DNA from: Promethearchaeota archaeon
GTDB lineage: Archaea > Asgardarchaeota > Hermodarchaeia > Hermodarchaeales > Hermodarchaeaceae
DNA length: 10,863 nucleotides
Assembly (NCBI GenBank): GCA_048939625.1
Contig: JBHLPH010000044.1
Span: 1 to 10,863 of the forward strand
Direction of reading: 5' to 3'
The notes under the pieces were generated by a model, which was given only the letters and a program-made list of their open reading frames with translations, did not search any database and had not been told where the DNA came from. Both the position numbers and the translations under genes were made by a program. The number at the start of each line of letters is the position of its first letter. Position 1 is the stretch's first letter. Positions 1 through 10,863 of the stretch are shown here, piece by piece.

Positions 1-350
1 GTGGAAATATCGATTTGTCGCACTATGAGATCTGGCATGAACCGGTTTCGGAGTACTTCAGCCACATCGACGGCGCGACTGATAGCTCGACCCCGGGCCT
101 TGATCACGAGTTCCTCAGGATTTCGGTTGAGTTGAGTGACACAGGCAGTGATATAACTCATCAAAGGTTTGCTGCCAACGAACACAACGCTTTCATCACG
201 TCGTGACTTGGGAGCTTCAGCCTTTGCTTCAGCTTTAGGCTTTGTTTCTTTTTTCGGAGCCTTTTTCGGCTTTTCCTCTTCAGCCTTAGGCTCTTCCGCT
301 TTGGCTTCTTCGGTTTTTGTAGTCTCAGCAGATTCAGTTTCTTTAGACAT
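1..350 (-). CDS. albA: DNA/RNA-binding protein Alba with ~52-aa Lys/Glu/Ala/Pro-rich N-terminal extension (3' end runs off the window)
   Basis: Manual translation of the minus strand from ATG 350: [116 protein letters not shown]... It has the Alba hallmarks VFVGxKPxMxY and [27 protein letters not shown]-like motif at 366-362; alternative in-frame ATG at 368. Confidence 0.95.
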
Positions 351-484
351 TTTGGGAGTTTCCTCCATCTCTGGTTTTGTTGTATGCTGGTTTCACCAGT
401 TGTCCAGTGACGAGTTACAGAAAGGTCTAGGACCTCCTCCTGTAACTTGGTGAGGAGAACCGATACCCGCGTATTAACTTTAAA
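351..484 (-). promoter_or_regulatory. Putative alba promoter (TTTAAA 484-479) and structured ~105-nt 5' leader
   Basis: TATA-like TTTAAA at 484-479. Hairpin AGUUACAG/CUGUAACU (447-440/420-413) enclosing AGGUC-CUA-GACCU. Small hairpin CUGGUGAAACCAG (399-387). GGAG-GAAA-CUCC hairpin (366-355) covering the SD. Confidence 0.5.
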
Positions 485-1728: not shown

Positions 1729-2115
1729 ATGTCCAAAGACGCTGATGAGTTGAAACGCATTCGGGAACGTAAGATACAAGCTCTTCTCAAAGAGCAAGAG
1801 CGCCGTGATGCAATCAAAGATGAAGTCGCCGAACGGGAAAAAGAACGTGAAAAAATCGTTGCAGCACTGTTTCTACCTGAGGCTGTTTCCTACCTGGAAG
1901 AATTGAAAAAGACCAAACCCACAATCGCCTATCGAATCGAGGATTTAGCAATCACGCTCTATCTCCGTAGACAGCTCATTAATAGAATTCCTAAAGAAGG
2001 CGTCATCTTAGTTCAGCGGAAACTTGAAGGTGTGGAACCAAAGATCACTGTGAAACGCCGAGGCGAAGATGAGGTTAGTTTCTATGAAGCAGTCAAGAAG
2101 GATTTGGCTGAGTAA
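1729..2115 (+). CDS. PDCD5/TFAR19-family double-stranded DNA-binding protein, divergent
   Basis: N-terminal DELKRIRERKIQAL, central LFLPEAVSYLEELKKTKPTIAYRIEDLAI (cf. the family pattern ILTPEARERL..L...KPE.A..VE..LI) and KITVKRR. AGGTG SD at 1718-1722 favours ATG 1729 over GTG 1720. Confidence 0.75.
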   Translation: MSKDADELKRIRERKIQALLKEQERRDAIKDEVAEREKEREKIVAALFLPEAVSYLEELKKTKPTIAYRIEDLAITLYLRRQLINRIPKEGVILVQRKLEGVEPKITVKRRGEDEVSFYEAVKKDLAE

Positions 2116-2184: not shown

Positions 2185-2670
2185 CTAAAATGCCGCGACT
2201 GGTGCTTCTCCAGTTGAGGTCTCTTTTAAAACCCGACCTTGCCTATTTTGGAGCGACACTCTCACTACACTGACCGCGTTTGCACCCCACACGGTTCGTT
2301 TGACATCCCGCTCCAACATTTTTACTGCTGAATCATTGCTCAATTCCTGAAATGCATTGGAACCTAAGTGCAGCAGTAGGTGAAGGATAGTTCCGGCCTC
2401 CTGAAATAAAGGATCAGGGGCTAAATCCATATCCATGGTCTCAGGTAAGGTTACCTCGGGTTGGGGTTTCCAATTGAAGTAACGTTTGCGAGCTTCCTTC
2501 CGAATGCTGACTAATCCTGCGCAACAAAGCACTTCGATAACATCATACAATCTCCGTTTTTCTTGGAGCGGCAAGCCTAGATGCATTAGAAGCGTATTGG
2601 CAGTATACTCTTGTTCTGGATGTTCTCGCAAAAAGGTAATGACGTGACTAGCAACTTCGCCTAATTTCAT
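2185..2670 (-). CDS. Winged-helix DNA-binding protein with E2F/DP-family signature
   Basis: First ~70 aa: VASHVITFLREHPEQEYTANTLLMHLGLPLQEKRRLYDVIEVLCCAGLVSIRKEARKRYFNW. This matches the E2F/DP pattern KRR[IL]YD[IV]xNVLxxxGL[IV]x[KR]...W. A Pro/acidic linker and an ~70-aa unassigned C-terminal domain follow. GAGGA lies upstream of ATG 2670; the ORF track uses TTG 2703. Confidence 0.75.
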   Translation of the reverse strand: MKLGEVASHVITFLREHPEQEYTANTLLMHLGLPLQEKRRLYDVIEVLCCAGLVSIRKEARKRYFNWKPQPEVTLPETMDMDLAPDPLFQEAGTILHLLLHLGSNAFQELSNDSAVKMLERDVKRTVWGANAVSVVRVSLQNRQGRVLKETSTGEAPVAAF

Positions 2671-2780
2671 TTCGATATCCTCGCCCAGTCCATAATGTTC
2701 CAAGGCAAGCCGTCGGTTTCGATGATTTGAGAAAAAGCCAGCAAGCTGGCTCGAATCTCCTCATGAATTGCTTCCCTCAA
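2667..2780 (-). CDS. Possible 37-aa small ORF translationally coupled to the E2F-like gene
   Basis: TTG 2780 opens MREAIHEEIRASLLAFSQIIETDGLPWNIMDWARISK*. Its TGA overlaps the downstream ATG as ATGA (2670-2667). TATA-like TTTTTAAT at 2823-2816. No recognisable homology. Confidence 0.3.
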   Translation of the reverse strand: MREAIHEEIRASLLAFSQIIETDGLPWNIMDWARISK

Positions 2781-2951
2781 AACATTAAGCGTGTTCTTAT
2801 CCTTTCTACCTCCTAATTAAAAAGGACTGGTAATACCTTCAGAATCAATTATCAAAGACCTTAGGATCATTTTCTTCGGGTCAGGCAGTAAAAGGAGAGA
2901 GCTTAAATCAGTAAAATGCCTGCTAGAAGAGATGGGGCAATGCTGGTCGGA

Positions 2952-9584: not shown

Positions 9585-10778
9585 CTATTTGATCAAGTCT
9601 TCAGGCGTTGGAAGTTTTTTGACCTGTTCAGGTTCTTTCCCATAATGAACGCCTGGTTCGGTTTCTAAACGCTCTGTGTAGAGGACCTCACCTTCCACCA
9701 TAACATCGCGTTCAATGTAGATATCACGCCCATAGAGGTTTTTCACCCGAGCCCGTTCTTCCACACGGATGGAATCACCATAAAACGATGCTCCACGAGC
9801 TTTTTCTCCAACGATAATATCTGAGCCTTCAACAAAACCTGAAACTTCACCCCGTCGACCAATACGGAATTCACGTTCTGCAATAATATGAAAAGCCCGA
9901 ATAGACCCACCCACATCTATTCGTGGACATTGAATTTTTTGTCCAGCCTGTAAAGATCCACCAATGTCAATCAGTCCACCAACTATCAAATCGGTTCCAA
10001 TTACAGCACTTCCACCAACGTCGAGTTTTTCGCTTAGGAATAAAGATTTCTCAGCTTTAATAGCGCCACCACAATCAATTGACTTGCCTTTCGCATCTCC
10101 AGAAAATTTTGCTGCGCCACCAGCGTCTACTTCTTCGAAGGTCAGGTCACCTTCGCTCTTGAAGCTGCCACCAACGTCGACTTTGATTATTTTGGAATTG
10201 GGTCCTACGACTACAGCACCGCCAACGTCTATGTCGCCGATTTCAATGGCGCCCTCTGCTTTGAAAGATCCTCCGACATCGACTTTTCCGATGGTTCCAG
10301 TGTTGCATTTAGCAGCTCCACCTACTGATAATTTTGTGGAGTCAATATTTCCTTCTATTTTGACTGCTCCGCCAACCCGAATTTCTTCAACTTTGGCGTC
10401 TCCAACAACTTTTAGGGCTCCACCGATGGAGACCAGGGTGGCGGTTAGATTTTTCCCAACTTTGAGAGCAGCACTAATATCAATTCGATTTGCTGTTGCT
10501 GATCCCGTGACGTCTAGTTGCCCGTGGCGAACACTGACAGCTCGTGCGATGTTCAAGTCGCCGTGGATTTCCGTGGTATTATCGCCGTCAATTTCAAGAT
10601 ATTCAGCCTTCAAAGAACCTTCAACTTCAACATCACCACGGATGGTAAGGCGACCGTCCACGGTGATGGTATCACCTTTTTCGGGGAGGATTCGACGACA
10701 GTTTTTAAGTTCCACATCACCTTTGACGTGTCCTAATGTGACTTCTTGTTCATTTTTGTACTGAAGTTTATCACCCAT
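9585..10778 (-). CDS. Long bactofilin-like (polymer-forming cytoskeletal) beta-helix repeat protein
   Basis: ~17-aa periodic repeats such as IGKVDVGGSFKAEGAIE / IGDIDVGGAVVVGPNSK / IIKVDVGGSFKSEGDLT. C-terminal GDSIRVEERARVKNLYGRDIYIERDVMVEGEVLYTERLE resembles Bacillus YhbE/YhbF-type bactofilin ends. GGAGG SD and a TATA box support ATG 10778 (397 aa) rather than 10856. Confidence 0.7.
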   Translation of the reverse strand: MGDKLQYKNEQEVTLGHVKGDVELKNCRRILPEKGDTITVDGRLTIRGDVEVEGSLKAEYLEIDGDNTTEIHGDLNIARAVSVRHGQLDVTGSATANRIDISAALKVGKNLTATLVSIGGALKVVGDAKVEEIRVGGAVKIEGNIDSTKLSVGGAAKCNTGTIGKVDVGGSFKAEGAIEIGDIDVGGAVVVGPNSKIIKVDVGGSFKSEGDLTFEEVDAGGAAKFSGDAKGKSIDCGGAIKAEKSLFLSEKLDVGGSAVIGTDLIVGGLIDIGGSLQAGQKIQCPRIDVGGSIRAFHIIAEREFRIGRRGEVSGFVEGSDIIVGEKARGASFYGDSIRVEERARVKNLYGRDIYIERDVMVEGEVLYTERLETEPGVHYGKEPEQVKKLPTPEDLIK

Positions 10779-10824
10779 TTTGAATGCCTCCGAGCATTTG
10801 GCTGAGGAAAGCAAGGCATTCCTA

Positions 10825-10832
10825 TTATAAAA
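10825..10832 (-). promoter_or_regulatory. TATA box of the bactofilin-like gene
   Basis: TTTTATAA on the minus strand ~47 nt upstream of ATG 10778, followed by a GGAGG SD 8 nt before the ATG. Confidence 0.55.
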
Positions 10833-10863
10833 GGCGGACTCACATTTGGGGGTCACATAATGT

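Follow-up and report, generated by a model that had tools for sequence, protein, structure and literature searches.

A Hermodarchaeia orthologue of the Asgard E2F/DP homologues and its candidate DNA sites at ftsZ1 and cdc6-1

In eukaryotes, E2F/DP drives the G1/S transition, and RRxYD is the base-contact motif of both E2F and DP. The origin of E2F/DP bears on how cell-cycle control arose. A 10,863-nt stretch of DNA from a Promethearchaeota archaeon (contig JBHLPH010000044.1 of assembly GCA_048939625.1), referred to below at its full length as the window, carries a small minus-strand gene whose product contains this motif. The locus raises the question of whether the protein is a genuine member of the E2F/DP family and, if so, which DNA it could read in the archaeal cell. 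We find that the gene is very likely the Hermodarchaeia orthologue of a published Asgard E2F/DP homologue and that its product would be a small sequence-specific DNA-binding protein.

The open reading frame runs from 2670 to 2185 on the minus strand, with an ATG at 2670 and a TAG at 2187-2185, and its translation gives a protein of 161 residues. A longer frame beginning at an upstream TTG at 2703 is unlikely to be used, because a Shine-Dalgarno (SD)-like GAGGA sits 6-10 nt before the ATG and 24 orthologues begin with MKLGEV. The GAGGA lies within an 18-nt block conserved across the genus. Altogether, 32 orthologues or close homologues were identified at 56-93% identity, all in Asgard metagenome-assembled genomes (MAGs); the close homologues come from MAGs labelled Thor-, Hod- or Promethearchaeota. 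The six-frame search of the host genome, which is 87.6% complete, revealed one E2F_TDP gene (35.4 bits). The gene and its DNA-binding part are located as follows.

2185..2670, minus strand: coding sequence of the E2F/DP-family protein, stop codon included (translation; Pfam E2F_TDP match above cut-off; 32 orthologues)
2467..2670, minus strand: winged-helix DNA-binding domain, residues 1-68 (Pfam residues 3-67; AlphaFold2 fold; matches of an Asgard-only profile)
2542..2559, minus strand: KRRLYD, the RRxYD base-contact motif opening the recognition helix, residues 38-43 (sequence; invariant in relatives; aligns with RRIYD of E2F4 and E2F8)

Membership of the family is carried by sequence profiles. 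The Pfam model E2F_TDP (PF02319) matches residues 3-67 over profile positions 5-63 of 65, scoring 34.1 bits (E 2.2e-8) against a curated cut-off of 25.7 bits. The next families, TrmB (PF01978; 14.4 bits against a curated cut-off of 25.6) and F-93_WHD (about 14 bits), stay below threshold. Every Asgard homologue tested exceeds the E2F_TDP cut-off, with 33-44 bits. The similarity spans the entire domain, from helix 1 through the wing Trp, and is not confined to the motif. Residues R39, R40, Y42 and D43 and the wing residue W67 are invariant both in the 24 orthologues and in 19 diverse Asgard homologues. In the AlphaFold2 (AF2) model the domain forms a winged helix (H3-16, H24-31, H35-50, E54-59 and E62-67; predicted local confidence, pLDDT, 81-94), with RRLYD at the N-terminus of the third helix, H35-50. 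An earlier note on this DNA, made by reading the letters, had described an E2F/DP-like relative with KRRLYD at 2559-2542, preceded by two helices at winged-helix spacing, and had remarked that the Asn of the eukaryotic NVL is replaced by Glu. Its coordinates proved exact on re-reading, the Pfam and AF2 results agree with its description, its test of RRxYD conservation among homologues came out in favour, and the alignment places EVL of the archaeal protein on NVL of E2F4, with Glu for Asn.

Because the Pfam model might already include archaeal sequences, we also made the comparison in the opposite direction. From 19 winged-helix domains, all of them Asgard and without eukaryotic or viral rows, a profile was built that was searched against 177,635 PDB sequences and selected E2F8 (4.9e-13), E2F4 (3.6e-10) and DP2 (1.9e-4), with the next chain at 0.085. 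None of the prokaryotic winged helix-turn-helix chains fell below E 0.4 in this search, though the PDB holds hundreds of them. A narrower profile made from orthologues only returned the same two top matches with weaker scores. The fold searches speak less favourably. With the full model, Foldseek against the PDB and VIA-align placed no E2F4 or DP2 chain among the top 50, and the top neighbours were generic winged helices (Hop2, Z-alpha, Fur/PerR, ArsR/SmtB and HlyU; Z 9-11). Profile searches thus provide a link to E2F and fold searches do not, and the E2F assignment therefore rests on sequence, not structure. On these grounds the protein is almost certainly a true relative of the domain with which E2F/DP binds DNA.

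The family, its Hermodarchaeia version included, was already catalogued in 2023, and the protein as such is not a novelty. Eme et al. (2023, Nature 618:992, Suppl. 4.1.5; PMC10307638) reported Asgard E2F/DP homologues across most Asgard groups, entered as 'E2F/DP homolog' (arCOG02749) in their table of eukaryotic signature proteins (ESPs), and a 2024 review in Annu Rev Cell Dev Biol (PMC7617429) states that Asgard genomes encode E2F homologues. The sequence table of the former (PMC10307638) contains Hermodarchaeia_WORB2_22320, a protein of 161 residues with the layout MKLGE...KRRLYDVIEVLCCAGLV...RDIKRTVWGANAVSV, which agrees with genus members such as L032 in every one of its first 50 residues. 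From the common length and this identity it follows that the window comes from Hermodarchaeia and that its orthologous group is catalogued; in family, orthologous group and protein identity we find no difference from the published homologues. These are described as keeping the base-contact residues, as having eukaryotic homology confined to the domain that binds DNA, and as lacking a dimerisation domain (PMC10307638). The Hermod orthologue differs in possessing a conserved C-terminal domain of about 70 residues, present in Hermod, Odin and one further family. This tail domain, a PDCD5-like neighbour, a structured leader and an E2F1-type palindrome at ftsZ1 and cdc6-1 are what we would add, as inferred leads.

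Across the Asgard archaea, E2F_TDP was found in 123 of 301 genomes and 35 of 70 genera, with 0 of 14 control genomes positive. Its presence is sharp at the family level (for example, 68/76 genomes in one family and 0/68 in another), and 16 of the 18 other genomes of the host family carry the gene.

The comparison with known systems defines how the protein could work. Like eukaryotic E2F1-6 and DP1/2 (E2F4-DP2-DNA structure 1CF7), it has a winged helix with RRxYD opening the recognition helix, followed by VL..GL[IV] and the wing Trp. Unlike them, it comprises only 161 residues with Glu for the Asn of NVL, has no coiled-coil/marked-box (CC-MB), transactivation or pocket-protein-binding region, and is encoded by a single gene in the host genome, so that an E2F-DP heterodimer is not possible. 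No RB_A domain (PF01858) was found at E up to 1 in the host genome, itself incomplete. Among the atypical factors E2F7 and E2F8, E2F8 (E2F8-DNA structure 4YO2) is the best-scoring solved relative. Like E2F7/8, the archaeal protein has to do without DP as a partner; E2F7/8 achieve two-domain binding by means of tandem domains within a single chain, whereas the archaeal protein has one domain. The generic winged-helix regulators (TrmB, ArsR/SmtB, MarR and Fur) have the same fold of three helices and a beta-hairpin and differ in lacking the RRxYD signature. As a separate observation, tandem two-domain E2F_TDP proteins of 195-248 residues with the E2F7/8 layout (P0039-P0043; loci L040 and L041) occur on 70-kb metagenomic contigs with many ORFans together with TBP, RCC1, Kelch, protein kinase and DAGAT genes, which resemble giant-virus DNA.

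The part of the protein beyond the winged helix divides into two regions.

2419..2466, minus strand: Pro/acidic linker, poorly conserved and predicted to be disordered (pLDDT <50 for residues 72-85; variable alignment columns)
2215..2418, minus strand: C-terminal domain specific to the subfamily (residues 85-152), in which the motif M..RD[IV]KR is invariant (conservation; AF2 pLDDT 80)

Outside residues 3-67, Pfam gave no match even at E up to 1, in line with the statement of the earlier note that a coiled-coil/marked-box region is not recognisable and that a different short C-terminal domain takes its place. In the alignment an M, the R-D-x-K-R residues and an L of this domain are invariant. 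Folded alone by AF2, it reaches pLDDT 80 as an extended hydrophobic segment, two helices and a beta-hairpin, and its best match among PDB folds, to SEA-like domains, has a Z of 3.5. A hidden Markov model (HMM) of the C-terminal part matches only in the two Hermod genera, Odinarchaeia and one further family, and a full-length profile search over 1.8 billion proteins returned only 10 matches; the full-length subfamily is therefore narrow. Most other Asgard E2F-like proteins measure about 183 residues and continue into a heptad-like (coiled-coil-like) helix and a small beta-rich module. Aligned to that tail by hhalign, the C-terminal domain gave a probability of 0.08%. The coiled-coil and beta module of the other homologues retrieved generic coiled coils only from the PDB, and neither Asgard tail type matches the eukaryotic CC-MB families in Pfam.

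Should DNA binding require two winged helices, as with E2F4-DP2 and E2F8, a single-domain protein would have to self-associate; because the genome offers no E2F_TDP paralogue to pair with, we propose that this protein does so. The C-terminal domain is possibly the self-association module. Predictions of a two-copy homodimer with alignment gave scores of 0.51, 0.30 and 0.17, with the median below the mark. The single gene per genome and the palindromic form of the candidate site described below make a homodimer plausible, and we put the chances at about even that DNA is bound by a homo-oligomer of the protein, in the simplest case by a homodimer that the C-terminal domain holds together.

The proposed candidate is a palindrome, TTGGCGCCAA, which forms the core of the consensus for human E2F1 from SELEX (in vitro selection of bound sequences) and JASPAR, which reads (A/T)TTGGCGCCAAA (PMC5449588, PMC11580471). 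Only two copies occur in the host genome. The first (G000:C28:38435) lies 265 nt upstream of a small ribbon-helix-helix (RHH) gene (PF01402) that precedes ftsZ1, and the site reads …AATTGGCGCCAATC…. The position of a small CopG-type RHH gene directly upstream of ftsZ1 is like the haloarchaeal cdrS-ftsZ2 arrangement. In all 12 aligned genomes of the genus the palindrome is invariant upstream of RHH-ftsZ1 while its flanks diverge; its spacing to the RHH-proximal elements is constant, and that to a divergent tRNA-like gene varies. Upstream of cdc6-1, the half-site GCGCCAA[AT] is likewise invariant in 12/12 genomes (full palindrome in 3), within …TTAGCGCGCCAATTG…. This upstream region (G000:C28:3020-3420; locus L042) is probably a replication origin: it contains genus-conserved elements like origin recognition boxes (ORBs), namely TTCCAGTGGAAA followed by a G-run, and repeated GTTCAC/GTTAAC words. 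Over the 19 family genomes the palindrome occurs 71 times against 35 for the reversed control; about 23 copies are intergenic, 16 of them at the ftsZ1 and cdc6-1 loci. The second host copy, TTTGGCGCCAAA (G000:C12:54176), was considered as a site upstream of a cis-prenyltransferase gene and rejected, as it is part of the coding N-terminus, where it provides codons for LWRQ; this also explains its conservation in 9 genomes.

Several observations count against these sites as targets of the protein. Close to the ftsZ1 palindrome there is also the TATA box of the divergent tRNA-like gene. The cdc6-1 half-site is inside a larger inverted repeat, GTTCACA...TGTGAAC, in the ORB-bearing origin region, and may belong to the site of another, origin-related protein. 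Genome-wide, TTTSSCGC shows no preference for intergenic DNA, which makes up 12.2% of the genome and contains 12.7% of the copies; TTGGCGCS stands at the background intergenic fraction (11/89 copies), and SGCGCS is not enriched there either. The other intergenic TTGGCGCS copies adjoin unrelated genes (Roadblock, BacA, GHMP kinases and thermosome) and form no coherent regulon. Furthermore, no palindrome was found upstream of ftsZ in 15 genomes from five other Asgard families, namely 5 E2F-positive genomes of another family and 10 E2F-negative ones, and the ftsZ1 site is therefore specific to the genus. Compared family by family, the palindrome's surplus over its reversed control agrees with the presence of E2F only in part: the counts are 321 vs 65 in family f6 and 71 vs 35 in family f1, yet 20 vs 5 in the E2F-negative family f12 and 5 vs 18 in Odin, which belongs to the same subfamily. 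As for the tRNA-like gene itself, the conserved block (L058:1040-1200; G000:C28, minus strand) resembles a tRNA-Leu(GAG) whose D-arm contains an insert and whose CCA end is encoded. ARAGORN and Rfam made no call on this block, which may be a tRNA with a non-canonical intron.

The E2F-like gene has conserved elements of its own upstream of the ATG.

2817..2836, minus strand: promoter element GTATTACCAG-N3-TTTTTAA, a palindromic GTAWTAC core beside a TATA-like box (footprinting, 16 genomes)
2671..2795, minus strand: predicted structured 5' leader of about 125 nt (RNAalifold and pair counts, 13 genomes)

In 16 genomes from two genera the pattern GTAWTACCAG-N3-TTTTTAA is kept unchanged or almost unchanged within a spacer that has otherwise diverged. 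The combined pattern is unique in the genome; GTAWTACCAG alone occurs at chance frequency genome-wide (11 found against 10.3 expected). The RHH-ftsZ1 promoter keeps two or three GGTAATAC elements in 12/12 genomes (G000:C28:38435-38700; L058:1236-1665), and the GTAWTAC core common to both promoters hints at a shared regulator. The word TTGGCGCC is not present upstream of the E2F-like gene itself. The leader, whose transcription start is inferred from the position of the TATA box, would fold around a 13-bp long-range stem (2787-2775 with 2705-2693) that closes about 70 nt of variable hairpins and is followed by the conserved SD region GGACTGGGCGAGGATATC at 2691-2674. In the 13 genomes, 92% of the stem cells are paired, as compared with 40-56% when the partners are slid, and 7 pairs have changed on both sides; 0 of 500 shuffles gave a stem as good. 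The minimum free energy of the leader is -39.8 kcal/mol (z -2.1), and it matches no family in Rfam. Such a leader may control translation or stability.

Taken as a mechanism, these elements would fit together in the following way. As a regulator of transcription, the protein would be linked with cell division and replication through the RHH(cdrS-like)-ftsZ1 operon and cdc6-1 with its origin. The RRxYD helices would take one GC-rich half-site each, in the manner of E2F4-DP2, and expression of the E2F-like gene would be controlled separately by the GTAWTAC/TATA promoter element and the structured 5' leader. That TTGGCGCCAA is the preferred site is possible, with the odds somewhat against it. The binding mechanism as a whole is proposed tentatively, with the odds likewise against it. 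The full combination, in which a homodimer held by the C-terminal domain occupies TTGGCGCCAA at RHH(cdrS-like)-ftsZ1 and beside cdc6-1 and the origin while its own level is set by the leader and the GTAWTAC element, is rather unlikely to be right in every part. To our knowledge, neither a target nor an oligomeric state is on record for any Asgard E2F homologue, and the literature that we searched yielded no published report of such target sites. If the proposal holds, the link of E2F with replication and division genes predates eukaryotes. Binding of the protein to TTGGCGCCAA would mean that E2F DNA specificity and part of its target logic are older than eukaryotes, and a negative binding result would favour the view, already published, of a different mode of action for the archaeal proteins.

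The gene neighbourhood bears on the alternatives. Convergent with the E2F-like gene lies one short reading frame.

1729..2115, plus strand: divergent PDCD5-like (dsDNA_bind) paralogue (Pfam PF01984, 26.6 bits against a cut-off of 26)

The stop codons of the two genes are 69 nt apart. Both Hermod genera keep this tail-to-tail pair, as do Odinarchaeia, whose remaining neighbours are all different; one further family has a PDCD5-like gene about 0.9 kb from the E2F-like gene. In the other Asgard families no PDCD5-like gene was found within 1.5 kb. A canonical PF01984 copy (E 7.5e-26) exists elsewhere in the host genome, and many Asgard families carry two PF01984 copies. The wider gene order (MBL, PIG-L, GT4, BshC-like, transglutaminase, E2F-like, PDCD5-like, M28 peptidase and Alba) is found again in another MAG, on a contig of 95 kb. 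The concern raised by the earlier note that the contig might be chimeric is thereby removed. The Alba gene (3-368, minus strand) is open at the window edge, and its product has an N-terminal extension of about 55 residues.

The pairing with a PDCD5-like gene leads to the most serious alternative, namely that the protein has an E2F/DP fold and serves in chromatin or at origins as an architectural or origin-associated DNA-binding protein, perhaps together with the dsDNA-binding neighbour, instead of acting as a gene-specific factor. The conservation of the convergent pair in Hermod, Odin and one further family is in keeping with this, as are the Alba gene 2 kb away in the same conserved block, the position of one of the two conserved candidate sites in the ORB-containing region by cdc6-1, and the genome-wide motif counts, which reveal no regulon. 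However, the invariant RRxYD base-contact residues argue for sequence-specific reading, and convergent genes are not co-transcribed. Moreover, the neighbour is not found within 1.5 kb of the E2F-like genes of other Asgard families, and the second PF01984 copy is only weakly linked to E2F presence at the family level. We regard this alternative as improbable, though a real contender beside the two that follow.

An ordinary archaeal winged-helix regulator of the TrmB, MarR or ArsR type that carries RRxYD by chance would account for the generic top ranks in Foldseek and VIA-align and for the weak sub-threshold Pfam matches to TrmB and F-93_WHD. It would not account for E2F_TDP scores above the cut-off in all Asgard homologues tested, for an Asgard-only profile that picks E2F8, E2F4 and DP2 with no prokaryotic winged helix-turn-helix domain below E 0.4, or for a match that covers the whole domain, and its probability is accordingly very small. 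Smaller still is that of the gene having been acquired recently from a eukaryote or virus, or of a binning or assembly artefact. The tandem E2F_TDP proteins on giant-virus-like contigs and the estimated contamination of the MAG (6.3%) could be cited for it. It is contradicted by the conserved synteny, as the same gene stands in the same neighbourhood in other MAGs and in most genomes of the family, and the flat G+C of 0.43-0.46 over the whole window, the archaeal flanking genes (Alba and PDCD5-like) and the breadth of homologues across Asgard genera also oppose it. A Hermodarchaeia orthologue of the Asgard E2F/DP homologues that binds DNA in a sequence-specific manner remains the reading that we prefer.

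Two further features of the window were observed. Between 4126 and 8392 lies a bacillithiol-type gene set, conserved in a sister MAG and remarked on by the earlier note as well, that comprises a BshC-like Rossmann protein, a nitroreductase, a GT4 glycosyltransferase and a PIG-L deacetylase. At the far end, a 423-residue protein with bactofilin repeats is encoded on the minus strand at 9585-10856.

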